Positions 1 through 11,899 of a stretch of DNA of 11,899 bases are shown here, in pieces. Within the stretch, counting starts at the first letter, position 1. Every line of letters begins with the position of its first letter. Both the position numbers and the translations under genes were made by a program. The DNA lies in contig CP070680.1 of NCBI GenBank assembly GCA_020352555.1, forward strand, positions 558,091-569,989, read 5' to 3'. Below the pieces are notes generated by a model, which saw only the letters and a list, made by a program, of their open reading frames with translations, made no database searches and was not told the origin of the DNA. Origin of the DNA: a candidate division WOR-3 bacterium. GTDB taxonomy: Bacteria; Hydrothermota; Tepidihabitantia; Tepidihabitantales; Tepidihabitantaceae.

Positions 1-232
1 CCATGCCATCGAGCTGAAGGCAAGGCAGGTGCTGAACTCGGCAGATGTGCCGAGCATGCTGTATGTCTTCTATCTCAATTATGCCCGTGAGCTGCACAGG
101 CTGAGCAAGCGGCTTTCCGGGCCTTCGCTTGTGCGCGAGGCGAACGTGCTGCTTGAGAAGTGGGTGGCAAGGACGCTTGAGCGCACGGCGCTTGAACGTA
201 TCCGGGACGAGGCGTTCTCGGTCGGGACCTAG
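1..232 (+). CDS. 3' end of a gene of unknown function (open to window start; stop TAG 230..232)
   Basis: Frame 2 is open from position 2 (HAIELKARQVLNSADV...) with no stop until TAG at 230..232. The track's Met at 29 is internal. The translated sequence has no recognisable motif. Confidence 0.45.
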   Translation, partial: HAIELKARQVLNSADVPSMLYVFYLNYARELHRLSKRLSGPSLVREANVLLEKWVARTLERTALERIRDEAFSVGT

Positions 233-3200
233 CGCTGAATCACGACCTTCTGAGTAGCTGCGAAGCCCTCGGCTTCGAGCTTCACCACATACACCCCGGC
301 GCTGAGGTGTCTGAGGTCAAGCGGCACCACCCCTCGGTGAGCTGGCAGGGCCAGCTCTCTTGTCTCCGCCACACGTCCTGCCACGTCATAGAAGGTCAGG
401 CAGCAGGTCTGGGCTGCAGGCATCACGTAGCACAGGCGGCAGCGCCGACCAGCCGCCACACTCGGCACCAGCTCTGCCTGTATTCGCCCAGGCAGAAGCC
501 CTTTCTCCTTCGCGATTCCCGGCCTGCCTGCGCCCTGAAAATACACGTCGTCGAGCATGAACGAGCCGTGGATGGCCCTGTTGGTCCGATGCCTGAAACC
601 GATGTAGATGGTGTCGCCGTCGTGCGTGTCCAGGCTGCGCCAGACCACTTGCCAGTCATGACCCGCAGTATCGGACGCGTAGAGCCGTTCCAGCCTGTTG
701 TCCGGATCCTGCCTGTCCATTGTCCAGACCTCGTACAGCAGGCCGGAATCCGCCCGGCAGACGAATCCGACAGTATCTCCGGTCAATGCGCTCGGCACAG
801 CAGCATCAGTGAACAACCAGTCGTCCATTCCTCCAACTACCCACTCGACCGCTGACGAAGCACATGACCGGCCGGTATGCGAGGCCGTGCTGTCGCGCTT
901 CCAGGTCTGACTTCCTCTGTCGTTGTTCACTGCCACCCAGCCGGAAGGCGGAAAAAGCGTGTCCTCAAAGTCCTCGATCCAGTACGTGCCGGTCGGAAAA
1001 ACAAGGGCGCTGACCGTGGCCGTATCGTTGTAGGGATTGTCGTCACAGGCACAGGCGGCGAGTGAGAATAGGTGCATTTGGTAGCCCTGTAGAGGTGGAA
1101 CCAGGAAGTACATCTCGACCGGGATTGTATCGCCCGGCCTGACTTCCGGGACCCTGGCCGAATCGAGAGGTGTGAGCAGGTCGAGGAGCGCTATGACGTC
1201 TACGTCCGTGGCAGCCGAGTCACCTGTGTTCAAGAGGAAGCCGGATAGGACATTTGTGTCGCCTGCGACTGCAGGATAGCGAACCGACTCCGAATCGCAC
1301 AGCACCGCGACATCAATGACCCCGGACGGCTCGACATAGTCAACCTTCAGGTAGGGACGATTGGGAGAACTACGCCCGTAGATGAGGCCGGCGGGCCACG
1401 AGCTTACATCGAAGCCCGTCACGAACCACCCCCTGCCAATGTCGCCCTGCAGAGCGGAATCCCCTTCAGGTGTGAATATCGTGCCGTTCCAGCCTGCCCG
1501 GGGGCAATCGACTCCGGGACTGACGCTGCGCGACCCGAGGTGGGCCAAGTACAGCTCCTCGCTGTCGGCAACAACAGGGTCTACCCGGATGTTGGCTACC
1601 CTGATACTTGTCAGGTCAGAGTCGGGCAACAGGAAGAAGCACAACTCGCAGAATAGGATTTCCGACCCGAATCTCAGCGGATTGAGGTCGAACTTCGCCC
1701 ACCCGTAGCTCAACGAGTTCCTATCATACATGACTATGTCCCCGTCCTCCTTCGGCCCGATGGCGCCGCCATACCAACGTTTCTGCGACCCGGTCCAGAA
1801 GGGCTGAATCTGAGCAATGAGGAAGACACTGTCCGGGTGAGTCTCCAGCACGCGCACTGGGATGGCGGCGGCGTTGTTGTCCGGATTGTAGTCCTCCGGG
1901 AGCATGGTCGAGCACTTCGCCACAAACCGTCCCAGAGAATCCGGCACCCATTTCCTGAAATTGACCGTGCAGGCTCGACCCCCGTCCAGCAGGACGGAGG
2001 TATCGTTGCTGTAGGCCTCTCCAATCGTGAAGCGAATCGGGAGTGTCCAGGGATGTGTCCCGTAGTTGTGCACGCGGGCCGACGGGACGAATGTGTCGCC
2101 AACGACCCCAAACCCGCGTGGCGTGAGAATTGCCGAACATCCAGCATCGGCCCGATGAACCTCGACGGTACAGACAACGCAGTCATTTCCAGGCCGTTCG
2201 TCTCCGGAGAGCATGGTCGAGCACCTGACTGCAAGAGTGCCGAGTTCGGCAACCATCCAGGGCGGAAATGAGACCGTGTCCCGCTCACCGCCGTCGAGGA
2301 ACAGCGTGGTGTCTGAGAGATAGCGGGTGCCGATGCTGAATCTGACCGGGACGGTCTGAGGTTCCAGGCCCCGGTTTGCCACAACCGCCCTGGGGACGAC
2401 CACCGCGCCCGAATCGATTCGTCCGAAGGGCGACAGAAGCCGGATGACTCCCGCATCTCTTTGCACCATGCTGTAGAGCAGAACCAGCTCTGGTGTAGAG
2501 TCGTCGCTGGCATCTCCATGCCCAGAGTGGCATCGTATGCCGAGCGATATCGTATCGGCCGGCAGCGTTTCCAGCAGTCGGTGAGCTTTGACAAGGTTTC
2601 GGTGAACCCAGCCGAGGTTATCCTGAAGCGTATCGCCGAGAGGACGGCCTTCATACAGAGCCCACCACAGCGGTTCCGGTTCGGTTTCAACGGGGTCACA
2701 TTCGATCAGCACGATTGTGGTCGTCGGCAGCCCCTGATGCCACCAGAGGTGGTACCGCAGGCCGGCCCAATCGATCCGGGCGTCGGTCGGGACAGACGTA
2801 AGGGCAAATGATAGGTAGCCGTGATAGAACCACCCGAAGGGTTCCAGGTTACCGGGCTCCTTCCAGAACTCCCAGTCCCAGTTGCAGGCAGTGCCAATGA
2901 CATGGGCTGGCACCGTAGTGCCCTCCGCTGCCTCGACTGAGTCAAGCAACCTGTCATTGCCCGGTCGCTCGTCGAGGTCAAGCATCGTTGAGCAACTGAC
3001 CACGTAGCGTCCCGAGTCCATAGGCACCCACGGTGGGAACGAGACGACTGTGGTTTCCCCCGCAGCCACGGAGGCCGTCGTTTCTGCCTCGTACATACCG
3101 CCTATGGACATCCGCACCGGGAATGTCTCGGCCACCTCTCCATAGTTCACAACCTGGGCTCGTGGAACGATAGGGAAACCAGTGGCTGTCTTACCGGTCG

Positions 3201-3363
3201 GTCTGAGGATCGCGGCTGTTCCGACATCCCGCAGCAAGGTTTCCACCCGAATCGAATAGACATCCGCATCGTCTCTGAACTCGCGGTCCTGCGCGAGCAA
3301 CGCCGCCAAGGCCATGATTGTGACCAGGAGCGTGCCGGTGGTCCGGCGTGAATGGTGGTTCAT
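229..3363 (-). CDS. Large T9SS-secreted surface protein with an N-terminal signal peptide, three CARDB-like repeats, an unassigned central region, a choice-of-anchor-J / cleaved-adhesin-like domain and a Por_Secre_tail C-terminal sorting domain
   Basis: The 1044-aa ORF starts MNHHSRRTTGTLLVTIMALAALLAQD, which reads as a signal peptide. Three ~100-aa repeats end in D-ERPGND / PEDYNPDNN motifs (VNYGEVAETFPVRMSIGG..., VANRGLEPQTVPVRFSIGT..., VHNYGTHPWTLPIRFTIGE...), typical of CARDB. The region YWIEDFEDTLFPPSGWVAVNNDRGSQTW...IYIGFRHRT...FMLDDVYF matches the MAM-like choice-of-anchor-J / Cleaved_Adhesin pattern. The C-terminus LTFYDVAGRVAETRELALP...LSAGVYVVKLEAEGFAATQKVVIQR matches the T9SS CTD consensus. 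Stop TAG is on the minus strand at 229..231. Confidence 0.85.
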   Translation of the reverse strand: MNHHSRRTTGTLLVTIMALAALLAQDREFRDDADVYSIRVETLLRDVGTAAILRPTGKTATGFPIVPRAQVVNYGEVAETFPVRMSIGGMYEAETTASVAAGETTVVSFPPWVPMDSGRYVVSCSTMLDLDERPGNDRLLDSVEAAEGTTVPAHVIGTACNWDWEFWKEPGNLEPFGWFYHGYLSFALTSVPTDARIDWAGLRYHLWWHQGLPTTTIVLIECDPVETEPEPLWWALYEGRPLGDTLQDNLGWVHRNLVKAHRLLETLPADTISLGIRCHSGHGDASDDSTPELVLLYSMVQRDAGVIRLLSPFGRIDSGAVVVPRAVVANRGLEPQTVPVRFSIGTRYLSDTTLFLDGGERDTVSFPPWMVAELGTLAVRCSTMLSGDERPGNDCVVCTVEVHRADAGCSAILTPRGFGVVGDTFVPSARVHNYGTHPWTLPIRFTIGEAYSNDTSVLLDGGRACTVNFRKWVPDSLGRFVAKCSTMLPEDYNPDNNAAAIPVRVLETHPDSVFLIAQIQPFWTGSQKRWYGGAIGPKEDGDIVMYDRNSLSYGWAKFDLNPLRFGSEILFCELCFFLLPDSDLTSIRVANIRVDPVVADSEELYLAHLGSRSVSPGVDCPRAGWNGTIFTPEGDSALQGDIGRGWFVTGFDVSSWPAGLIYGRSSPNRPYLKVDYVEPSGVIDVAVLCDSESVRYPAVAGDTNVLSGFLLNTGDSAATDVDVIALLDLLTPLDSARVPEVRPGDTIPVEMYFLVPPLQGYQMHLFSLAACACDDNPYNDTATVSALVFPTGTYWIEDFEDTLFPPSGWVAVNNDRGSQTWKRDSTASHTGRSCASSAVEWVVGGMDDWLFTDAAVPSALTGDTVGFVCRADSGLLYEVWTMDRQDPDNRLERLYASDTAGHDWQVVWRSLDTHDGDTIYIGFRHRTNRAIHGSFMLDDVYFQGAGRPGIAKEKGLLPGRIQAELVPSVAAGRRCRLCYVMPAAQTCCLTFYDVAGRVAETRELALPAHRGVVPLDLRHLSAGVYVVKLEAEGFAATQKVVIQR
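232..500 (-). other. Region encoding the T9SS (Por_Secre_tail-type) C-terminal sorting domain of the 229..3363 protein
   Basis: The last ~90 aa contain ...YDVAGRV.....G.....L..LSAGVYVVKL.A.G......KVVIQR, which is the CTD beta-sandwich signature. The domain boundary is approximate. Confidence 0.6.
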
Positions 3364-4355: not shown

Positions 4356-5267
4356 CTAGCGGTTGACGTTGAGCATCGGGATGAGGTCCTGGTCGAACGG
4401 CATGACGACAAAGGTGGTGTTCTGGCTCTCGGCAACCCTCTTGAGCGTCTCGACGTAGTACCAGGTCAGGTAGTTTGACGTCAGCGAGCCGGCAATCGTC
4501 CTGTTGGCTGCCGCGATGCCGCCGGCCTCTATTTCCTTGCGCTCGGCTTCGCGCTTCTCCTTGGCCAGGGTGAACTCCATCTTCTGGGCGTTCTGGTCCT
4601 CGGCCAGCTTCTGCTCGATGGCGGTCATGACGATGTCGGGCAGCTTGACCCGGCGCAGCAGGACCCGCTCGCGGATGACGCCCTTGTCGGCGAATGCGAC
4701 ATCCATCAGCGAATCGACCTGGACGGTGTAGGCGGTACGGCCGGCAGAGGAGTAGAGCTCGGAGGCGGTGAAGCGCGACGCGGCGTCGCGCAGCGCGGTG
4801 CGGATCGAAGGCCGGACGATCTTCTCGACGTAGTTGGGTCCGATGTTCTTGTAGACCCAGCTCGCCATCTTTTCGTCGAGCCGGTACCAGGTGGTCACGT
4901 CGAGCTGGACGGTGAGACCGTCGGACGCGAGTGCGTCGATGGCGTCGTCGCCTTTGATCTGGCCTTCTTCGCGCATCGACGACATGGTGTAGGCGTTGGT
5001 GCGCACGTCCATGAGCACGACGTTGACGATCGGCAGCACGACGTTGAGCCCGCTCTGCATCTGGTTCTGGACCCGTCCGAGCAGCACCGGCACCCCGGCG
5101 TGGCCTGGCGGCACGATGCGGAAGAACGAGATGCCGAACAGGATGCCGACGATGACGATGGCGATGATGCCGACGCGCTTGGCGTAGAGCCGGGCCTTGC
5201 CGCTCTGCCGGATGGCCACGTAGGCGATAATGGCGGCGATGGTGAGGGCGATGACTACTCCGAACAT
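4356..5267 (-). CDS. SPFH / band-7 (prohibitin/stomatin/HflKC-like) membrane protein
   Basis: An N-terminal hydrophobic anchor is followed by RIVPPGHAGVPVLLGRVQNQ...GLNVVLPIV..V..MDVRTN...DGLTVQLDVTTWYRL...YVEKIVRPSIRTALRDAASRFTASELYSS... and a coiled-coil KLAEDQNAQKMEFTLAKEKREAERKEIEAGG, typical of SPFH proteins. SD GGAGGT lies 4 nt before the ATG. Stop is TAG. Confidence 0.8.
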   Translation of the reverse strand: MFGVVIALTIAAIIAYVAIRQSGKARLYAKRVGIIAIVIVGILFGISFFRIVPPGHAGVPVLLGRVQNQMQSGLNVVLPIVNVVLMDVRTNAYTMSSMREEGQIKGDDAIDALASDGLTVQLDVTTWYRLDEKMASWVYKNIGPNYVEKIVRPSIRTALRDAASRFTASELYSSAGRTAYTVQVDSLMDVAFADKGVIRERVLLRRVKLPDIVMTAIEQKLAEDQNAQKMEFTLAKEKREAERKEIEAGGIAAANRTIAGSLTSNYLTWYYVETLKRVAESQNTTFVVMPFDQDLIPMLNVNR

Positions 5268-5349
5268 CTTACCTCCAGTCCTTGGTTGTGGTTCTGTCTT
5301 TTGTCTCTGCCCTGTCGGTCACTGTCTGTTCTACACGCAGAAGGCCGCG

Positions 5350-6786
5350 ATGTCAAACCGCATACGCCTGCGGCCCGGCTTGCTCACGAGTGATGGTCCG
5401 GCTACAATCAGCCACTTGGCCCAGGACAACGCCGACGCTGCGTCCGTGAAACCCGATAAGGGCATGAGGTCGGTGGTGCGTCGGCCCCAGTTCCTGATTT
5501 TCGCGATATCCCAGTCGGTTTCCCTGTTCGGCGACAAGCTCGACTACATGGCGATGCTGGCCCTGATCGCGTTTTTCGCCGAGCGTGGAGGATGGGACAG
5601 CAGCCGGGCGATAGCTGCGCTGGCGGTCGTGGCCGCGCTGCCGACGGTGATGTTCGGGCCGCTGGCCGGGGTGTTCGTCGACCGTCGGGACCGGCGCAAG
5701 GTGATGGTGCTCTGCGACTCGGCCCGGGCGCTGATGGTGCTCGCGGTGCCGTTCGCAGCGCTGGCAACGGGCAGCATCTGGATCATCTTCGTCATCGCGT
5801 TCGCGGTGTTCCTCTGCGGCCTGGTGTTCAACACCACCCGGCTGTCGGTGCTGCCCAACCTGGTCAGCGACGAGCAGATCGCTCCGCCGAACCGGCTGCT
5901 GGCCGCGAATTCGTTCATGAACGTAACCGGCAGGGTTGCGACTCTGCTTGGGATGGTGCTGGGCGGGTTGATTGTCGACTGGACCGGCTGGCAGCGGATC
6001 GGTATCACCTATTCGTGGAGCGCGGGGTTCTATGTCGACGCGCTGACCTATGCGGTGTCGGTGCTCGGGCTGCTGCTGATCTATCAGCGGATATCGGTGG
6101 GCCCTCGAATCGGGGTGGGCAGGACCGGTGATAGGTCGTCTTTCGGGCGGCTGGCCCGGGACAAGTTCCTTCACGTGATGGACGACCTCAGAGGCGCATG
6201 GCATGTGATGGTGCGGGAGCCGTCAGTGCTGTTTGTCTACTGCGTGGTCGTCGCGTTCGTCCTAATCGGCGCGGGATTTACCGTGCTTTTCATCCCGCTG
6301 GTTCAGGGCGGAGCCGAAGTCGAGGGCCTGGGGCTCGGCACCCGGGGTGTCGGAATCCTGGCCGGCATCGGTTCGGTCGGGCTGATTCTTTCCTCGCTCG
6401 GCTACGGGATTGCAGGGCACGGGCTGAAGCGGTACCAGGCGGTGCTGGGTTCGATTGTCACGCTGGGAATCGCCATTGCGGTCATCGCAGTCTGGCGTTC
6501 ACTGGTGGCGGTTTGTGCTGCCGCGTTCGTCGCCGGTCTGGCGATTTCACCGGTGTACATCGGCCTGGACACACTGCTGCACGAGACCGTACCGGCCGAG
6601 GCGCGCGGGCGGGTGTTCTCGACCCGGGAGTGGATAATGCACGTGTTCTTTGCCGGAATGGCGTTCCTGCTCGGACAGCTCACCCGGGTCGTGCCGAAGC
6701 GGGACCTGCTGTTTGTCGTCGGGGTGCTCGTCGCAGCGGCCGGGGTGGCCGGTTTCTTTCTTACTCACCGACAGAGGATAGGATAG
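5350..6786 (+). CDS. MFS transporter (DHA3/EntS-like efflux family)
   Basis: There are about 12 predicted TM segments. The N-terminal MFS motif is RRPQFLIFAISQSVSLFGDKLDYMAM, then GPLAGVFVDRRDRRKVMVL. The track start 5230 overlaps the divergent SPFH start. ATG 5350 is preceded by GAAGG 7 nt upstream, and ATG 5464 (MRSVVRR) is an alternative start. Stop is TAG. Confidence 0.75.
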   Translation: MSNRIRLRPGLLTSDGPATISHLAQDNADAASVKPDKGMRSVVRRPQFLIFAISQSVSLFGDKLDYMAMLALIAFFAERGGWDSSRAIAALAVVAALPTVMFGPLAGVFVDRRDRRKVMVLCDSARALMVLAVPFAALATGSIWIIFVIAFAVFLCGLVFNTTRLSVLPNLVSDEQIAPPNRLLAANSFMNVTGRVATLLGMVLGGLIVDWTGWQRIGITYSWSAGFYVDALTYAVSVLGLLLIYQRISVGPRIGVGRTGDRSSFGRLARDKFLHVMDDLRGAWHVMVREPSVLFVYCVVVAFVLIGAGFTVLFIPLVQGGAEVEGLGLGTRGVGILAGIGSVGLILSSLGYGIAGHGLKRYQAVLGSIVTLGIAIAVIAVWRSLVAVCAAAFVAGLAISPVYIGLDTLLHETVPAEARGRVFSTREWIMHVFFAGMAFLLGQLTRVVPKRDLLFVVGVLVAAAGVAGFFLTHRQRIG

Positions 6787-6797
6787 CAGAGCCGGGG

Positions 6798-7844
6798 TCA
6801 GCGCAGGGTCGCTGGGGTGTGCCTGGTCACGGCCTGATGGGTCGCGGCCCTCTTTTCGGAGTGCACCGCTTGTCGGAGCCACTCGTCCACAAGTCGGACA
6901 GCGCGAGGCGCATCGTCGTGCAGGCAGTACCTTACCCCGGTAGACGGCTGATGCAGGGGGAAGCGGTCGAGCGCGGCCAGGAAACGCTCGAGCGCTCTGG
7001 GCAGGCGGCGGATGCTGCCGATCATGCCCCAGCCCGAGGCGGCCAGCATCCTGGCATTCAGTTCCTGCTCGTACTGGCCCTGCTGAGGAAAAACGAGCAG
7101 CGGCTTGCCCAGGGACAAGCATTCGGAAATGAGCTGGTGTCCTGCCGGCGCGACGATGCCGAGGCAGGACGCCAGTGAATCGGTGAAGCTGCTATGCCCT
7201 GACGGAAAGACCCTGAAGTTCGTGTCCGGGAATCGGCCCAGTGCCGGGACTACGTGTTCGCGAAACGCCTCGCGGGCATAGACGAAGACGAAGTCTCCCC
7301 GGGTCGGCGTCTTGCCGGTGACCTCCTGCCGGATCAGCGGTCCGACATCACCGTTGTAGAACGACGAGGTGATATGGGCGTTGCCGTAGGGCATCATCAC
7401 CCGGTTGATGAACCAGGCCAGGAGCCACGAGGGCTTGAGCGACCTGTGGGTGTCAACCACGCCCTGGTGATTGAAGAGCAGAACCGGGATGCCTGCACGC
7501 TTGGCTGCCAGCGGGCCGAAGGGCTCGTAGTCCGAGATCAGCGCCTGGATTCCCATGTCCTGCAGCCGGTCGGCAAGCCGGCGGGTCGTCCAAGGGCGGC
7601 GCAGGAAGTGGCCGGAGTTGAACACCAGGGTGCGGCCGACATCGACCGAATTGTAGCGATAGATGGTTCTCAGATACGGGATGGGTGTGAAATCGAAGTC
7701 CGGGAACCTGGGGCGCAATCTGTCCCAGGTGTGGTCCGGGCACAGGAGCGAGACCCGGTGTTCACCGGACAGTCCCTGGCACAGGGCCGCCATCCTGGTG
7801 GCGTGACCAGAGCCTTCTCCGTTGAGCGAGACCGCTACGTTCAA
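6798..7844 (-). CDS. GT-B fold glycosyltransferase (MurG/GT28- or GT1-like)
   Basis: An N-terminal Gly-rich G-x-G-H motif (VAVSLNGEGSGHATRMAAL) sits next to the start. The C-terminal donor-binding region is IVAPAGHQLISECLSLGKPLLVFPQQGQYEQELNARMLAASGWG. The start codon is TTG, since a TAA stop lies six codons upstream in frame and there is no ATG. Stop is TGA. Confidence 0.65.
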   Translation of the reverse strand: MNVAVSLNGEGSGHATRMAALCQGLSGEHRVSLLCPDHTWDRLRPRFPDFDFTPIPYLRTIYRYNSVDVGRTLVFNSGHFLRRPWTTRRLADRLQDMGIQALISDYEPFGPLAAKRAGIPVLLFNHQGVVDTHRSLKPSWLLAWFINRVMMPYGNAHITSSFYNGDVGPLIRQEVTGKTPTRGDFVFVYAREAFREHVVPALGRFPDTNFRVFPSGHSSFTDSLASCLGIVAPAGHQLISECLSLGKPLLVFPQQGQYEQELNARMLAASGWGMIGSIRRLPRALERFLAALDRFPLHQPSTGVRYCLHDDAPRAVRLVDEWLRQAVHSEKRAATHQAVTRHTPATLR

Positions 7845-7995
7845 GGCGTTAGTGTACCTCGATTAGGCCGTGTGCCAGGGCTGTCATAAGTCCGTCACCC
7901 ATCTTCGACAGAGTATGTCTCCGGTGCCACTTAGTCAAGTGCGTGAAGTGAATGGCGCCCCTGGTGTCGAGCCGGCGGGCAGATGTTGCCCGAGC

Positions 7996-9999
7996 ATGGT
8001 CGGCGCTGTAGAATGGTCACCCTCAGGAGGCCCTCTGAAATACCGATTGCTGACAGTCGCCTGCAGTGCCCTGCTTCCGGTCCTCGCGCCTGCCCGCGCC
8101 GGAGTGGACAACCTTGCCCTGCTCGGCCACAACGAGGTCAACCGCAACCACCTGATGGACGTGGAAATCTCGGGCGATCGGGCGTTCGTCTGCAACGGTC
8201 TAGGCTCCGGCCTCGAACTCTACGACATCTCCGATCCGGGCAACCCGAACCGGACCTGGACCGGCGGCCCGGACTGCTGGCGGGCCCGCGCCTACGGCGA
8301 CTCCGTACTCTTCATGTTCTGCCGCCTCGACGGCACGGTCCGAGTCGGCATCACCGGCACGCCCGCCAGCCGCGGCAACTACAACCCGCCCGGCAACCGC
8401 GAGGCGCTCGAGGGCGGCGCGCTGGTTGGGGACACGCTCTACGCCGCCGCGCACCAGAACGGCATCTACTTCATCGACTGCTCGAGTCCGACGACAGTCA
8501 CCAAGGTCGGCGCGATCTCGCTGGCCCCGACCGCCGCGGCATGGAATGTCGAGGCGCGCGACAGTTTCCTGTTCGTCGCGAACGGCCGACACGGCCTGGC
8601 CGTCATCGGGCTGGCCGGCGCACCCCGCCGAATCGTTGACCTGGCACTGCCGGGGCTGGCCAACGACATTGTGCTCGACGGTGCCGTCGCCGCGATCTCG
8701 CTCGGCGCCGGCGGGTTCGCGACCGTGGACGTATCCGACCCGTACGCCCCGGTCCTGCTCGACGTCGCGGAGACCGGCGGCTCGTGCTGGGGGCTCGGCA
8801 TCACCGGCCACCTCGTCGTGTCCGGCTCGTGGCGCGTGCTCGAACTCTTCGACATCTCGGACCCGGCGAACATCAGGCCGGCCGGCTGGGACAATTCCCA
8901 GACCTGGGCCCACGGCGCCGACATCCGCGCCGACTCGCTGGTCGCCATCGCCGACTGGCGCGGCATGTCGTGCTACCGGGTCGGACCTGACCCGGGCCCG
9001 GACATCGACGTCTGCCCAGAGTATGTCGACTTCGGCGCGGTCTCGAGTGCGGTAGAGACGACGGTCACGGTCCGCAACACCGGCGCCTCCGCGCTCGTCG
9101 TCGGCTCGGTCACGACGCCGGGCGGCATCGACGTCGACCCGGCGTCCTTCACGATTTCGGCCGGCGACTCGCTCAGCGTCGAAGTCAGTGCGGCCGGGAC
9201 CGGCCGGGTCAGCTCAAACATCGTCTTCAACTGCAATGACCCGTTCTACCCGCAGTATCGTGTCGAGGTGCACAAGAACAACTCCGCCTTTCCGCAGTAC
9301 GGTTCGCTGGCGCCCGACTTCACGCTCCTGGGCAGCGACGGCCGTTCGCACACGCTCAGCGATTACCGGGGCCGGGTCGTCTACCTGATGTTCGGCGCCT
9401 CGTGGTGACCGCTCTGCGGGCCGCAGGCTGCGGCCGCGGACGGCTCGATGTTCGAACGCTGGGACAGCTCGCAGGTTGTGATGTTCGCCGTCGGGGCCGA
9501 CAGCCACCAACTCAGTGAGTTCACAGACGTGTTCGGGTGGCGCTCGGTCGGGCTCATCGATCCGTCGAGTTCGCTCTACAGCTCCTGGCGCGTGCCTCAG
9601 CCGCTGGCGCCATACCCGCAGGACTACATCGTCGACCAGGACGGTGTCGTCCGCTACTGGTCGGATCAGTACGATGCCCAGGCGGTGATTCAGACGGTGG
9701 ACCGGCTGCTGGCTACCGGCGTCGGTGAGCGTGCCGGCGGCCCTGACCAGATGCAGCGGCTGCGGCTGACGTTGTCACCGAACCCGGCAGCCGGTGCGGT
9801 TCGGCTGCAGGCGCTCGGTCTGGCCGGCGGTGGAGGTACTGTTGAAGTCTTGGATGTTTCCGGAGCGGTGCTTGACCGGTTCGAGGTCGGTACCGAGAAT
9901 CCATTCACGTGGAGGCCCGAGGCGCCGGCCGGGGTGTACTATTTCCGGCTGGTGTCGGGCGACGACGAAGTTGCGACGCCGTCAGTGCTGGTGCGCTGA
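7996..9999 (+). CDS. T9SS-sorted selenoprotein: signal peptide + LVIVD-repeat beta-propeller + Ig-like (choice-of-anchor-D-like) domain + TlpA-like thioredoxin-fold redoxin with a U-x-x-C active site (TGA 9406..9408 read as selenocysteine) + Por_Secre_tail CTD
   Basis: Track ORFs 7870..9408 and 9448..9999 are in the same frame, with no other stop between them. The TGA lies in ...YRGRVVYLMFGASW-U-PLCG..., which is the WCxxC position of TlpA/ResA-like redoxins. The rest of the fold continues after it (VVMFAVGADSHQ...GLIDPSSSLYSSWRVP...PQDYIVDQDGVVRY). The signal peptide is KYRLLTVACSALLPVLAPARA. Repeated LVIVD motifs include GLELYDISDPGNP, GIYFIDCSSP, GFATVDVSDPYAP and VLELFDISDPANI. The CTD is LSPNPAAGAVRLQ...TVEVLDVSGAVL...PAGVYYFRLVSGDDEVATPSVLVR. 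The start ATG 7996 is uncertain (alternatives below). Confidence 0.7.
9406..9408 (+). other. In-frame UGA recoded as selenocysteine (UxxC redox centre)
   Basis: It falls at the first Cys position of the thioredoxin-fold CxxC motif, and the downstream sequence continues the same domain in frame. TGA is used as a true stop by the HlyD fragment, the glycosyltransferase and this gene's own terminus, so this is not code-wide reassignment. Confidence 0.65.
9414..9439 (+). promoter_or_regulatory. Candidate bacterial SECIS-like hairpin immediately downstream of the UGA
   Basis: CUGC(9414..9417)-G bulge-GGCCGC(9419..9424)-loop AGGCU(9425..9429)-GCGGCC(9430..9435)-GCGG(9436..9439) gives a ~10-bp stem with U·G wobble and one bulge, and a 5-nt apical loop containing GG at +18/+19 from the UGA. 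It was folded by eye only, and the region is GC-rich enough to allow alternative folds. Confidence 0.35.
9757..9996 (+). other. Region encoding the T9SS C-terminal sorting domain of the selenoprotein
   Basis: RLRLTLSPNPAAGAVRLQALGL...TVEVLDVSGAVLDRFEVG...PAGVYYFRLVSGDDEVATPSVLVR* matches the Por_Secre_tail consensus. The boundary is approximate. Confidence 0.6.
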
Positions 10000-10029
10000 C
10001 CACATCGTGTCAAAGACAGGAGGCAGAAC

Positions 10030-11899
10030 TTGAGACTGACCGCACTGCTGATGCTGAGCCTGGTTGCGCTTTCTGTGGGGACAGCCCGCATACCGGGTCC
10101 AGAGGGGCATGAGACCAAGTGGTTCCTGCCGTTGCCGGATCCGCCTCCGGTATTCGCGGAGTCCACCCACGAATACGACACGCGGTTCTTCAGGCTGGAT
10201 GTCAACCTGCCGATGACTTCGGGCGCGATGGACGCCCATGCAGGGATATGGATAGTCAGCGAAGTCGCGGGCCTGGACACAGCGGTTTTCGATTTCCGCA
10301 ACCTGGTGTGCGACTCGGTGAAGCTGAACGATACGATGCTCGGTTTCTCGACGACCTACCTCCAGCTCATGGTGGTGTTCGATGAGCCGCTTGCCTCGGG
10401 TGACTCGGTTCTCCTCGACGTCTTCTACCACCGTACAGCGGGAACGCAGAATCGGGGATTCTACTGGTACGAGCAGGATCCGCCGCGCAACCGGCTGCAC
10501 ACGGTCTGCTACACGCTGACCCAACCCGAGAACGCCCGGTACTGGTTTCCCTGCTGGGACCACCCGTGGGACAAGGCGGAGCGGGGCTGCCAGGTCAACA
10601 TAACGGTGCCGGATTCGTTCACCGCCTGTGCCAACGGCCTGCTCGACAGCACAACCTCGAACAGCGACGGCACCAAGACGTTCTGGTGGACCCACCGGTA
10701 TCCGATCTCGTCCTATCTGGTCAACTTCGGAGCCAGCGTGTTCTCGGTCTGGACCCAGTGGTCGTACCTGCAGAACGGCGATTCGGTTCCGACGGTCAAC
10801 TACATCTGGCCCGAGGACTCGGCGGTTTCTTTGAGCTCGTTCCGGAACGTGCCCAACATGCTCGAGTTCTTCTCTGACTCCATTCGGTTCGGCTTGTACC
10901 CGTTTCCGGAAGAGAAGTACGGCCATCTGGCCGTGTACCCGTTCGGGGCCGGCGGCATGGAACACCAGACGATGACGACCGTGCACCGGCAATGGGTGAC
11001 GCGAGGGTCCGAGTCCGGGATCGCGCACGAGCTCGCCCACATGTGGTACGGTGACTTCCTGACCTGCTTCATCTGGGCCGACATCTGGCTCAACGAGGGC
11101 GGGGCAAGCTACCTGGACCCGCTTTGGATGGAGCATTTCTACGGGCATTCGCGTTTCCTCCAGGACATGGAGGACTACCGGCGGTACTTCCTTCGCTCGG
11201 ATTCGGTGGACCGGCACCCGATATACGACCCGGGTTTGGGCCGGCTGTTTGACTACGGACATACCTACTGCAAGGCGGCGTGGGTGAACCACATGCTGCG
11301 CTATGTCGAGGGTGACACTGTCTTCGACCAGCCCGGGATCTGGTGGCAGACGGAGAGGGCGTACCTGGACAGCTTCGCGTACGGAACCGCGACGACCGAG
11401 GACCGCAAGCGTATCCACGAAGCCCACACCGGACTGGAGCTTGACTGGTTCTTCGACGATTGGGTGTACATGGCCGGGTTCCCCAACTACTCGGTGAACT
11501 GGTTCGGCCGTCACACGACGGACGGCTGGGAAGTCGTAGTCGACATCGGTCAGAACAACGGGGCCCAGGCGCCGGAGTGCTTTCACATGCCGGTTGAGCT
11601 CCTCGTCGGTACCGCGGCAGGAGATACTCTGTTCCACTTCGGCATCACCCAGAACCCCCAGCGCAGCGTGTTCCCGGTTTCGGCAGAGCCGAACAGCGTC
11701 GTGTTCGACCCGGGCAAGTGGATACTGAGCAAGCACACAATCACCAGCGGAATTGAGAATGAGCTCGACCCCGGGGCCGGTGTGAGCCGTCCGACGCTGC
11801 ACTCGGCAGCACCCAACCCGGCTCCGAATGCAGCGATTGTCCGTTTCAGCCTGCCCAATGCCCAGGACGTGAGCGTCCTGGTCTACGACGCGACCGGCC
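10030..11899 (+). CDS. M1-family zinc metallopeptidase (aminopeptidase N-like) with a signal peptide and the start of a T9SS CTD; 3'-partial (runs off the window); TTG start
   Basis: Not in the ORF track because no stop is reached. My own translation from TTG 10030 is open to the window end: (M)RLTALLMLSLVALSVGTARIP (signal peptide) ... ARYWFPCWDHPWDKAERGCQVNITVP ... GAGGMEHQTMTT (GAMEN-type exopeptidase motif) ... HELAHMWYGD (HEXXH) ... WLNEGGASY (third Zn ligand) ... SAAPNPAPNAAIVRFSLPNAQDVSVLVYDATG (CTD onset). A perfect SD AGGAGG at 10018..10023 lies 6 nt before the TTG. The in-frame TGA at 9997..9999 directly upstream leaves TTG as the first possible start. Confidence 0.8.
   Translation, partial: MRLTALLMLSLVALSVGTARIPGPEGHETKWFLPLPDPPPVFAESTHEYDTRFFRLDVNLPMTSGAMDAHAGIWIVSEVAGLDTAVFDFRNLVCDSVKLNDTMLGFSTTYLQLMVVFDEPLASGDSVLLDVFYHRTAGTQNRGFYWYEQDPPRNRLHTVCYTLTQPENARYWFPCWDHPWDKAERGCQVNITVPDSFTACANGLLDSTTSNSDGTKTFWWTHRYPISSYLVNFGASVFSVWTQWSYLQNGDSVPTVNYIWPEDSAVSLSSFRNVPNMLEFFSDSIRFGLYPFPEEKYGHLAVYPFGAGGMEHQTMTTVHRQWVTRGSESGIAHELAHMWYGDFLTCFIWADIWLNEGGASYLDPLWMEHFYGHSRFLQDMEDYRRYFLRSDSVDRHPIYDPGLGRLFDYGHTYCKAAWVNHMLRYVEGDTVFDQPGIWWQTERAYLDSFAYGTATTEDRKRIHEAHTGLELDWFFDDWVYMAGFPNYSVNWFGRHTTDGWEVVVDIGQNNGAQAPECFHMPVELLVGTAAGDTLFHFGITQNPQRSVFPVSAEPNSVVFDPGKWILSKHTITSGIENELDPGAGVSRPTLHSAAPNPAPNAAIVRFSLPNAQDVSVLVYDATG

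Follow-up and report, generated by a model that had tools for sequence, protein, structure and literature searches.

The question raised by this locus is whether a TGA codon inside a long reading frame ends a gene, as annotated in GenBank, or is read as selenocysteine (Sec) in a longer protein, and what such a protein might do. The window which we have analysed is the whole stretch of 11,899 nt from a candidate division WOR-3 bacterium. [quoted passage not shown] This composition is borne out by our analysis: profile searches support the redoxin domain (PF00578, PF08534) and also the C-terminal domain (TIGR04183, borderline in the window). All features are collected in Table 1. A single frame runs from ATG 7996 to TGA 9997–9999, and its sole internal TGA is found at 9406–9408. 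The start codon is uncertain, with candidates from 7915 to 8047. ATG 7996 is the start preferred by most gene callers; every candidate retains the hydrophobic core LLTVACSALLPVLAPARA and the GVDN after it. The earlier note had also considered that the gene could be a chimera, with a break near position 9400. There is no such break: in an independent Logan assembly (L127), positions 4534–11711 of the window recur with 99.76% identity and without gaps. Together with the presence of the same architecture in over 30 unrelated assemblies, this rules out an assembly artefact.

Table 1. Position of the features found in the window (aa, amino acid positions in the predicted 667-residue protein; AF2, AlphaFold2)
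Feature	Positions	Strand	Remarks
Complete gene of the putative selenoprotein	7996..9999	+	667 codons, one in-frame UGA, terminal TGA 9997-9999
N-terminal signal peptide, predicted	7996..8100	+	n-region with K15 and R17; hydrophobic core LLTVACSALLPVLAP; predicted cleavage between ARA and GVDN
Seven-bladed LVIVD-repeat beta-propeller, aa 38-330, predicted	8107..8985	+	PF08309 and AF2
Ig-like domain, HYDIN/VesB/CFA65 type, aa 335-427	8998..9276	+	PF22544; AF2 beta-sandwich
TlpA/ResA-like thioredoxin-fold (AhpC-TSA/Redoxin) domain, aa 436-554	9301..9657	+	motif W-U-P-L-C, cis-Pro loop APYPQD
UGA very probably read as selenocysteine, aa 471	9406..9408	+	position of the N-terminal Cys of the CxxC motif
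SECIS-like upper stem-loop GGCCGCA-GGC-UGCGGCC	9419..9435	+	10 nt after UGA; inside a longer hairpin, 9407-9446
C-terminal T9SS type A sorting domain, aa 594-667, predicted	9775..9996	+	TIGR04183, borderline in the window
M1 metallopeptidase, co-directional context gene	10030..11899	+	TTG 10030, 30 nt past the selenoprotein stop; cut by the window end

If the GenBank annotation were correct, TGA 9406 would be a true stop: a 470-aa LVIVD protein would end there and a separate protein of 183 aa (JSU73_02605) would start at ATG 9448. Every gene caller splits the gene in this way. But the stop would then sever a thioredoxin fold inside its CxxC motif. The AhpC-TSA profile match extends across the TGA, which falls on the first Cys when aligned to Etrx1 (WCSIC) and on the CxxC in alignments with TlpA proteins. 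Conservation of amino acids is also unbroken over the 39 nt from TGA to ATG 9448 (P-L-C-G-P-Q-A-A-x-D), and the loci of the family have 189–335 conserved in-frame codons downstream of the TGA. The codon itself is TGA in 37 of 37 loci (the window, 35 genome loci and the paralogue L126): this includes 31 of 31 loci of the main family, as well as four distant loci and the paralogue. Yet the real terminators vary: in the 31 main-family loci they are TAG in 15 cases, TGA in 12 and TAA in four. If the internal codon were an ordinary stop drawn from this mixture, the chance of finding TGA in all 31 would be about 1e-13 by our own arithmetic. Over 110 homologues in the databases (30–99% identity) end exactly at the internal TGA, and matches with 30–33% identity, in a search of 1.84 billion representatives, also end at ...F[GF]xx[WF].

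A hairpin follows the TGA. In its helix (alignment columns 14–20/24–30) 97% of the cells are paired, against 18–57% in slid controls, and five of the seven pairs show compensatory changes. Its folding z-score is -2.96. Distant subfamilies keep a hairpin at that site with different codons. In Escherichia coli fdhF, the sequence of which was verified, the TGA is followed by 11 nt and GGTTGCAGGTCTGCACC, with a matching position and a GG-containing loop. In its G-containing apical loop and its covariation the stem-loop resembles a bacterial SECIS element. The UGA at the start of the redox motif and the hairpin after it recur in all family members examined. Rfam offers some support to the two-gene annotation: a scan of the whole window, in which matches were accepted to an E of 10, returned only three at chance level and no SECIS family. 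No tRNA-Sec was found within 35 loci (about 12 kb around each). Since the TGA is conserved while the terminators vary, since a domain match crosses it and since the hairpin covaries, we conclude that TGA 9406–9408 very probably codes for selenocysteine; the chance that the GenBank annotation is right appears to be minimal. An alternative genetic code, with UGA as Trp or Gly, is out, because TGA is the ordinary stop of three of the six genes of the window and of 12 of the 31 family genes.

The protein read through the TGA has a clear modular organization. Its signal peptide was called from hydropathy and inspection of the sequence. The homologues have signal-peptide-like N-termini throughout, which end right before (G/D)(V/I)DNL. 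A lipoprotein signal in the window protein was considered and rejected: T-V-A-C is a poor lipobox and its Cys is not conserved (it is Leu in P0004). For the Pfam scores of the selenoprotein given here U was replaced by C. The LVIVD profile PF08309 reaches 33.6 bits (cut-off 20.2). An AlphaFold2 model restricted to aa 1–470 (pLDDT 88.9, pTM 0.83) predicts a seven-bladed propeller in aa 40–330, with 27–28 strands, followed by an Ig sandwich in aa 337–427. PF22544 (HYDIN_VesB_CFA65-like Ig) matches aa 335–415 with 37.0 bits (cut-off 25.5), and NF012200 has 26.8 bits in this region, under its cut-off of 45. The Ig-like domain is related to choice-of-anchor D. A Foldseek search of the PDB with the propeller found only generic WD40-like propellers with 7–8 blades, which are functionally uninformative. 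The succession of an LVIVD propeller and an Ig-like domain is shared with LVIVD and choice-of-anchor surface proteins (PF08309, TIGR04312, NF012200). However, the other LVIVD proteins which we have found (P0116–P0120, L039–L079 and giant multi-repeat proteins) have neither a redoxin domain nor Sec.

The redoxin domain matches PF00578 (AhpC-TSA) with 55.8 bits (cut-off 26) over aa 436–554, a span which includes aa 471, and PF08534 (Redoxin) with 38.5 bits (cut-off 26.6). Its best relatives in the PDB are Etrx1 (4HQS, E 1.1e-12), then Etrx2 and ResA. In the alignment with Etrx1 the loop APYPQD lies opposite the YPTQ loop; P68, Y69, P70, Q71 and D72 are invariant across the family. The closest proteins with Cys are single-domain TlpA/CcmG proteins, with at most 36% identity. 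Full-length equivalog or subfamily models of ResA and TlpA remain far under their cut-offs (36.6 against 170 and 19.9 against 230), as expected for a single domain. The cut-offs of NCBIfam selenoprotein models are not reached either: NF041054 (WAxxUGC_long) has 10.9 against 300, NF041425 (OS_HP2) 16.2 against 100 and NF038285 (deiodinase-related) 10.7 against 250. The domain is closest to the extracytoplasmic TlpA/ResA/Etrx reductases.

Among solved structures the best matches, with E from 1e-12 to 1e-9, are the surface thioredoxin lipoproteins Etrx1 and Etrx2 of Streptococcus pneumoniae (4HQS, 2YP6, 4HQZ) and ResA of Bacillus subtilis, which have in common with the domain of the window a W-C-x-x-C-type motif and a cis-Pro loop. 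They are extracytoplasmic, surface-exposed reductases (PMC3914529). All three differ from the window protein in that they belong to Gram-positive bacteria, have Cys instead of Sec and are single domains, anchored by lipid or by a membrane helix. Their electrons come from CcdA, encoded in the same operon, and they act in cytochrome c maturation or on MsrAB2, whereas no ccdA, msrAB or ccm genes were found near any of the loci compared. Neither could we recognise a CcdA/DsbD electron donor among the recurrent neighbour clusters and profiled neighbour ORFs of 36 loci; it could be encoded elsewhere in the genome. A reductase on the outer surface has no obvious electron source, which counts against the surface disulfide exchange that we prefer below.

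A peroxidase would present another solution: Sec would attack peroxides in the manner of GPx or 1-Cys Prx, would be recycled by external thiols or sulfide, and would protect the surface from oxidants. AhpC-TSA is the best Pfam match, BCP/PrxQ models give weak matches (16 bits with a cut-off of 140, 14 bits with a cut-off of 260), and Sec is resistant to over-oxidation. Furthermore the resolving Cys is absent in two of 33 relatives, L016 and L021 (U-P-V-V), which must therefore use a one-Sec mechanism; they do not fit a simple dithiol exchange. But the motif of the family, W-U-P-x-C, is of the TlpA/ResA type: in the window it is FGASW-U-PLC, different from the peroxidatic PxxxTxxC/U of peroxiredoxins, and models and structures of ResA, Etrx and TlpA score far above those of peroxiredoxins. 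We consider a peroxidase decidedly unlikely. Reductase, isomerase and peroxidase are all putative activities of the selenoprotein.

The position of the protein in the cell can be approached through its C-terminus. In the window TIGR04183 has 22.1 bits with the full protein and 23.2 with the C-terminal piece, against a cut-off of 23, and PF18962 has 13.4 against 27. In the family as a whole the C-terminal domain is clear: TIGR04183 matches 24 of the 32 C-termini (best E 1.8e-10) and PF18962 matches 12 of them; the latter is also precomputed on many downstream fragments. NCBI lists the paralogue fragment P0132 under the name 'T9SS type A sorting domain-containing protein'. The remaining eight of the 32 relatives have other tails. 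A dockerin replaces the tail in L041 and L049, and there is no tail in L036 and L037, which have a lipobox-like N-terminus (LLGC and LAAGC). T9SS domain, dockerin and lipoprotein signal are thus interchangeable anchors, as in the LVIVD and choice-of-anchor proteins. This exchange of the T9SS tail for a dockerin or a lipoprotein anchor argues for a location of the selenoprotein at the cell surface.

Cargo of the type IX system with a type A domain (TIGR04183/PF18962) shares with our protein an N-terminal signal peptide and, at the C-terminus, some 70 aa of sorting domain. The same tail is found in neighbouring genes: two further proteins of the window have a C-terminal sorting domain or a tail which begins like one. 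The host, a WOR-3 bacterium, lies outside Bacteroidota, and a T9SS in it is putative. For further phyla of the FCB (Fibrobacteres-Chlorobi-Bacteroidetes) superphylum the system is reported as a possibility (PMC11285876). A literature search for selenoproteins among T9SS cargo turned up none.

The neighbours of the gene were compared in 36 loci with a greedy set of non-overlapping genes, as a safeguard against antisense shadow ORFs in high-GC DNA. In the window the gene is followed by the M1 metallopeptidase (PF01433, 96 bits), with no terminator-like site between them. The earlier note had proposed a functional link with this peptidase, which our comparison does not sustain: the synteny is limited to the window and its closest relatives, L002 and L003. 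The M1 peptidase is a context gene and not a conserved partner. Throughout the 36 loci only partial links are apparent: a NosD-like gene in seven, the M1 peptidase in three and ASST in two.

Some of these neighbours bring to mind a dedicated folding catalyst, a disulfide isomerase or oxidase which would act, in the periplasm ahead of export or at the surface, on particular Cys-rich secreted proteins encoded next to it. E. coli DsbL/DsbI, which serve the arylsulfotransferase AssT, provide a model. Directly downstream of the selenoprotein gene, L016, L017, L024 and L027 encode a NosD-like beta-helix protein whose C-terminus is rich in Cys, and in P0113 and P0114 a NosD-like beta-helix domain is fused N-terminally to the selenoprotein. 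The dockerin-tailed selenoproteins of L041 and L049 have upstream of them an ASST-like protein which itself bears a dockerin. However, such neighbours occur in only six of the 36 loci and are absent from the window. Surface proteins are commonly of the beta-helix, LVIVD or ASST kind, so that adjacency may reflect only a shared location, and the closest relatives of the redoxin domain are reductases, not oxidases. We think that a dedicated folding catalyst is unlikely.

The NosD-like neighbours and fusions could also be related to metals: the Sec-Cys pair might hold Cu, Hg, As or Se species at the surface, as a Sco-like or chaperone-like protein, instead of catalysing disulfide exchange. There is a weak match to SCO1/SenC (E 0.095), and several known bacterial selenoproteins bind metal (PMC13188914, Table 1). 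But the SCO1/SenC match is far under the cut-off, Sco proteins use CxxxC and a His, and PF05048 takes in many beta-helix surface proteins unrelated to copper. We consider a role in metal or metalloid binding very unlikely.

The earlier note had treated this gene as a single odd case. It belongs instead to a large conserved family, with Sec in every member examined, which is widespread in uncultured bacteria and is split in two by gene callers. Its carriers are WOR-3, Stahlbacteria, Eisenbacteria, Gemmatimonadota, Calditrichota and some Planctomycetota bins. The suggestion that the architecture had not been described does stand: a search of the literature on selenoproteins with LVIVD or WOR-3 yielded no description, it is missing from a table of 119 bacterial selenoprotein families (PMC13188914), and none of the specific NCBIfam models fits it.

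For most selenoprotein families there are counterparts with Cys. In this family we have found none with the same architecture by a full-length word search, by a search with C-terminal fragments, by a search with the redoxin domain, or by an exhaustive search in which the N-terminal part was compared with 1.84 billion representatives. A DNA-pattern scan of metagenome contigs for FGxxW-C-PxCxxQ gave 46 loci, none of them related according to tblastn.

The UxxC selenoproteins reported in surveys as Prx-like or Redoxin-family proteins are known as single-domain proteins. These Prx-like thiol:disulfide oxidoreductases, thiol-disulfide isomerase-like and Redoxin-family selenoproteins (PF00578/cd02966/PF08534), known from the Sargasso Sea and GOS surveys, share with our family the thioredoxin fold, Sec as the first residue of UxxC and a SECIS directly downstream (PMC13188914, Table 1). 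Cys homologues were reported for them (PMC1088965). The window protein differs by its length of 667 aa, by its further modules (signal peptide, LVIVD propeller, Ig domain, C-terminal sorting domain) and by the lack of any Cys version of this architecture in our searches. Other selenoproteins predicted in the outer membrane or outside the cytoplasm, such as the FCYXU-type TonB-dependent receptor, the GSU2204 MtrB/PioB-like barrel and the ExtKL cytochrome, have other folds and chemistry (PMC13188914, Table 1); none of them is a soluble, secreted enzyme of the thioredoxin fold that carries a sorting signal at its C-terminus. The propeller-redoxin family is not in the current bacterial selenoprotein catalogue. 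It is a multidomain form of the UxxC TlpA/Prx-like selenoproteins.

The best explanation as a whole, which we consider probable, is an exported surface selenoprotein of 667 residues which carries out disulfide exchange. Sec would be inserted at the UGA by SelB and tRNA-Sec; the chain would cross the inner membrane by means of its signal peptide and fold in the periplasm. The type IX system would recognise only full-length, Sec-containing chains, because the sorting domain lies 3' of the UGA, and would place them on the cell surface or release them from it. There the seven-bladed LVIVD propeller and the Ig domain would form a surface binding platform and a spacer. The Sec-Cys pair would perform thiol/selenol-disulfide exchange, either reduction or isomerisation, on a substrate outside the cell or in its envelope, as in Etrx1/2 and ResA. 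Sec would supply a high nucleophilicity and resistance to irreversible over-oxidation where no repair system exists.

One may go further, although we do so tentatively and with considerable doubt: soluble redox selenoenzymes might here be displayed beyond the outer membrane of bacteria for the first time, in a family wholly dependent on Sec, in which secretion acts as proofreading and recycling is due to environmental sulfide or thiols and not to a cellular electron chain. With each kind of surface-sorting signal (T9SS C-terminal domain or dockerin) placed past the UGA, chains without Sec would never be exported.

Reading the UGA as Sec repairs over 100 database entries, each of which is now a truncated 'hypothetical protein' accompanied by an orphan fragment, and enlarges by one multidomain family what is known of bacterial selenoproteins in little-studied phyla. 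With no Cys form found and an exposed compartment without a repair system, the family offers a natural test case for the idea that selenium is kept as a safeguard against irreversible oxidation. It also raises a testable question about the extracellular redox chemistry of uncultured sediment and hot-spring bacteria, and about the source of its electrons.

The internal TGA of the selenoprotein gene is, as judged from its homologues, a conserved recoding site and not a stop. A full-sequence search of 5.8 billion proteins gave more than 110 homologues with 41–99% identity. Nearly all of them have 440–480 residues and cover only the first two thirds of the query; their C-termini are all of the form ...FG[AG]x-W, which ends exactly one codon ahead of the TGA. 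When 1.84 billion cluster representatives were searched exhaustively with HMMER, the same stop point appeared at 30–33% identity: every match which aligns as far as query residue 470 terminates at it, the tails being ...F[FG]A[ST][WF]. We collected 79 genomic loci, among them 31 complete loci of the main family. The next codon is TGA in all 31, with P-[LI]-C after it in 29 and P-V-V in two, and a further 189–335 in-frame codons downstream. The real terminators of these genes are TAG (15), TGA (12) and TAA (4). Given this mixture, the chance of finding TGA 31 times out of 31 would be about 1e-13 if the codon were an ordinary stop. TGA and P-x-C are also present in four distant relatives with 23–27% identity (L036, L037, L041 and L049) and in the paralogue L126. 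Since TGA terminates three of the six genes in the window, the selenoprotein gene included, the organism uses the standard genetic code. An annotation as two genes, with a true stop at the internal TGA, is effectively excluded. All database copies of the selenoprotein are annotated as truncated hypothetical proteins.

Features of the window and of the compared loci (nucleotide positions are those of the window unless a locus is named; aa, residues of the selenoprotein)
Feature	Position	Strand	Evidence or remark
Internal TGA	9406–9408	+	aa 471
LVIVD repeats	N-terminal part of the selenoprotein	+	Pfam 33.6 bits, cut-off 20.2
HYDIN/VesB/CFA65-type Ig domain	aa 335–415	+	Pfam 37.0 bits, cut-off 25.5
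AhpC-TSA	aa 436–554	+	Pfam 55.8 bits, cut-off 26
Redoxin	match includes the TGA at aa 471	+	Pfam 38.5 bits, cut-off 26.6
T9SS type A sorting domain	aa 594–658	+	NCBIfam 22.1 bits (full protein), 23.2 bits (C-terminal piece alone), cut-off 23
Hairpin GGCCGCA-GGC-UGCGGCC	9419–9435	+	10 nt past the UGA
1044-aa secreted protein	229–3363	-	choice-of-anchor J NF038128 39.9 bits; TIGR04183 23.2 bits, borderline
M1 metallopeptidase, cut by the window end	10030–11899	+	HELAHMWYGD; PF01433 96 bits
U-P-V-V in place of U-P-x-C	L016 7378–8022; L021 7327–7971		
NosD-like right-handed beta-helix gene, directly downstream	L016 8145–9416; L017 8031–9359; L024 2223–3617; L027 8051–9388		C-terminus ends SWGxIKxxFR
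ASST-like (arylsulfotransferase-like) gene with type I dockerin	L041 4247–5689; L049 2354–3799		just upstream of the dockerin-tailed selenoprotein

The hairpin which follows the UGA lies within a longer one (9407–9446; -26.3 kcal/mol, z = -2.96 versus shuffles). In an ungapped alignment of 34 loci its seven-pair helix has 97% of the cells paired, with compensatory changes at five of its pairs, for instance C-G to U-A and C-G to G-C, each in 12 sequences. As a control the 3' partner was slid by 1–3 columns: pairing falls to 18–57%. One compensatory change pairs a Pro-to-Leu codon change with a synonymous Ala change. Distant subfamilies have S-E-V-S-D instead of G-P-Q-A-A, yet they have a hairpin at the same site, with loops GGUC, GUU or AGUUA. 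This persistence with other residues, together with the covariation, indicates that the structure is conserved as RNA. Just past the active site, in U-P-L-C-G-P-Q-A-A, the Gln and Ala residues (positions 6, 8 and 9 of the family alignment A3) are invariant; they fall where the hairpin has its apical part, CAGGCUGC (9421–9432), and the distant subfamilies have different residues there. It is probably the RNA structure, and not the protein, that keeps them constant. The layout matches that of E. coli fdhF: TGA, 11 nt and then GGTTGCAGGTCTGCACC, a sequence confirmed in 5,419 E. coli genomes. An Rfam scan of the window gave no match at the hairpin.

The earlier note had proposed a signal peptide, an LVIVD propeller, an Ig-like domain, a selenocysteine redoxin and a sorting domain in one polypeptide. 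This multidomain architecture is borne out by the reading frame, the Pfam and NCBIfam domains and an AlphaFold2 model. A single frame covers 7870–9999 on the + strand, with the TGA at 9997–9999 as its end and the internal TGA as its only interruption; counted from the ATG at 7996 the protein has 667 residues. The internal codon, translated as Cys for the Pfam search, sits within the motif FGASW-U-PLC, and similarity to ResA and TlpA is also found with NCBIfam. The model of residues 1–470, built with 36 homologues, is confident (pLDDT 88.9, pTM 0.83). It begins with a helix that corresponds to the signal peptide; a propeller of seven blades at 40–330 and an Ig sandwich at 337–427 follow, and it ends in the first strands of the next domain. 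Foldseek matches of the propeller are only generic seven- and eight-bladed propellers; we read it as a binding platform. The chimera near 9400 which the earlier note had considered was not found. Run SRR14739665, assembled independently in Logan (L127), agrees with window 4534–11711 at 99.76% identity, gap-free and straight through the TGA, which rules out an assembly artefact. P0121, a C-terminal fragment with NCBI locus tag JSU73_02605, agrees with the window at 100% identity and assigns it to a 3.26 Mb contig from a candidate division WOR-3 MAG; a paralogue with 57% identity, P0046 (JSU73_09400), is encoded there too. Two paralogous copies per MAG are also found elsewhere (L011 and L014; L020 and L032; L013 and L029), and the source sample of the window likewise has a second copy, L126.

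The C-terminal sorting domain proposed before is borderline in the window protein and, by profile matches, clear in the family: TIGR04183 matches 24 of 32 C-terminal regions (best E 1.8e-10), PF18962 12 and the related FlgD_ig 16. PF18962 is present on many downstream fragments in the database, and the fragment of the paralogue is named "T9SS type A sorting domain-containing protein" by NCBI. The tail is replaced by type I dockerin repeats in L041 and L049. L036 (LLGC) and L037 (LAAGC) have no tail and a lipobox-like N-terminus; other Ig-like tails are found in L011, L014, L015 and L028, and in L023 and L025. Surface proteins of the "choice-of-anchor" kind behave in this way, with predicted anchors swapped round a core that stays constant; of the indirect evidence that the protein is at the surface or extracellular, we consider this the strongest. 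The N-terminus combines a charged stretch (K15, R17) with a hydrophobic core, LLTVACSALLPVLAP, and the site ARA|GVDN; the homologues have signal-like N-termini which end directly ahead of a conserved (G/D)(V/I)DNL. Gene callers place the start at 7996 or 7915. A promoter-like site, TTGCCC-17-TAGAAT at 7986–8014, overlaps the annotated ATG, and AGGAG at 8025–8029 is followed by in-frame CTG 8035 and TTG 8047. Both the promoter-like site and AGGAG hint at a true start further downstream than the annotated one; the signal peptide would then be shorter and of textbook form.

The redoxin domain is assigned to the TlpA/ResA class by its W-U-x-x-C motif and an invariant APYPQD cis-Pro loop. Among solved structures its best relatives are Etrx1 (4HQS, E 1.1e-12) and Etrx2, followed by B. 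subtilis ResA and TlpA. Etrx1 and Etrx2 are surface-exposed thioredoxin lipoproteins of Streptococcus pneumoniae, with PDB codes confirmed; they are extracellular reductases, fed by CcdA and serving MsrAB2 (PMC3914529). No CcdA/DsbD gene was seen among the neighbours of the compared loci. An assignment to the true peroxiredoxins was rejected: the domain lacks their PxxxTxxC motif and has negligible scores with BCP/PrxQ. Among the Cys-containing proteins of the large database, the nearest have a single domain and 160–250 residues, are named TlpA family disulfide reductase or CcmG/DsbE, and reach at most 36% identity across most of the redoxin domain. A Cys-motif scan of metagenome contigs (L080–L125) yielded an unrelated family, with proteins of up to about 1600 residues and FFGADWCPFCxxQK some 110–180 residues from the N-terminus. 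Two relatives, L021 from an Eisenbacteria MAG and L016 from an unclassified MAG, have neither the resolving Cys nor a conserved replacement, which implies a one-selenocysteine mechanism in that branch. Their lack of a resolving Cys is a point against a simple dithiol exchange. As rival functions the protein could be a peroxidase or a metal binder.

The neighbours of the gene vary. In the window the M1 peptidase starts 30 nt past the selenoprotein stop, with no terminator-like site in the interval, and its last 35 residues before the cut look as if a further T9SS C-terminal domain begins there. Only here and in the closest relatives, L002 and L003, does the peptidase gene follow that of the selenoprotein. 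The 1044-aa protein has several internal repeats of about 110 residues and no Pfam match. Four loci encode, directly downstream, a NosD-like beta-helix protein whose C-terminus is rich in Cys; three more have one in the vicinity, and in P0113 and P0114 a NosD-like domain is fused to the selenoprotein N-terminus. Another rival function is that of a dedicated folding catalyst for adjacent Cys-rich secreted proteins. L011 also has an ASST-like region, related to the gene in L041 and L049.

UxxC selenoproteins of AhpC-TSA/TlpA-like fold have long been known: Prx-like thiol:disulfide oxidoreductase, thiol-disulfide isomerase-like and Redoxin family (PMC1088965; PMC13188914 Table 1). The catalytic module is therefore of a known kind. 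Outer-membrane selenoproteins have also been predicted, among them a FCYXU TonB receptor and a MtrB/PioB-like barrel (PMC13188914 Table 1), so selenocysteine outside the cytoplasm is not new in itself. New by comparison are the predicted multidomain surface architecture, its interchangeable anchors and the apparent absence of a Cys form. Neither an LVIVD propeller nor a T9SS tail is listed for any of the 119 prokaryotic selenoprotein families in a 2026 inventory (PMC13188914), the selenoprotein is not recognised as such by any NCBIfam model, and we found nothing relevant in the literature on selenoproteins with LVIVD, type IX secretion or WOR-3. The family is real and conserved, and we found no description of it.

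We have thus a conserved gene, with its UGA and SECIS, for a protein with signal peptide, propeller, Ig, TlpA-like (UxxC) and sorting domains. Selenocysteine would be inserted by SelB, the protein would be exported via the Sec translocon, and the T9SS would then recognise it by its C-terminal domain. Since this domain is encoded after the UGA, only chains with selenocysteine inserted would be sortable, and the terminated ones would stay behind. At the surface the propeller would hold a substrate, and the selenocysteine-Cys pair would act on it by disulfide exchange.
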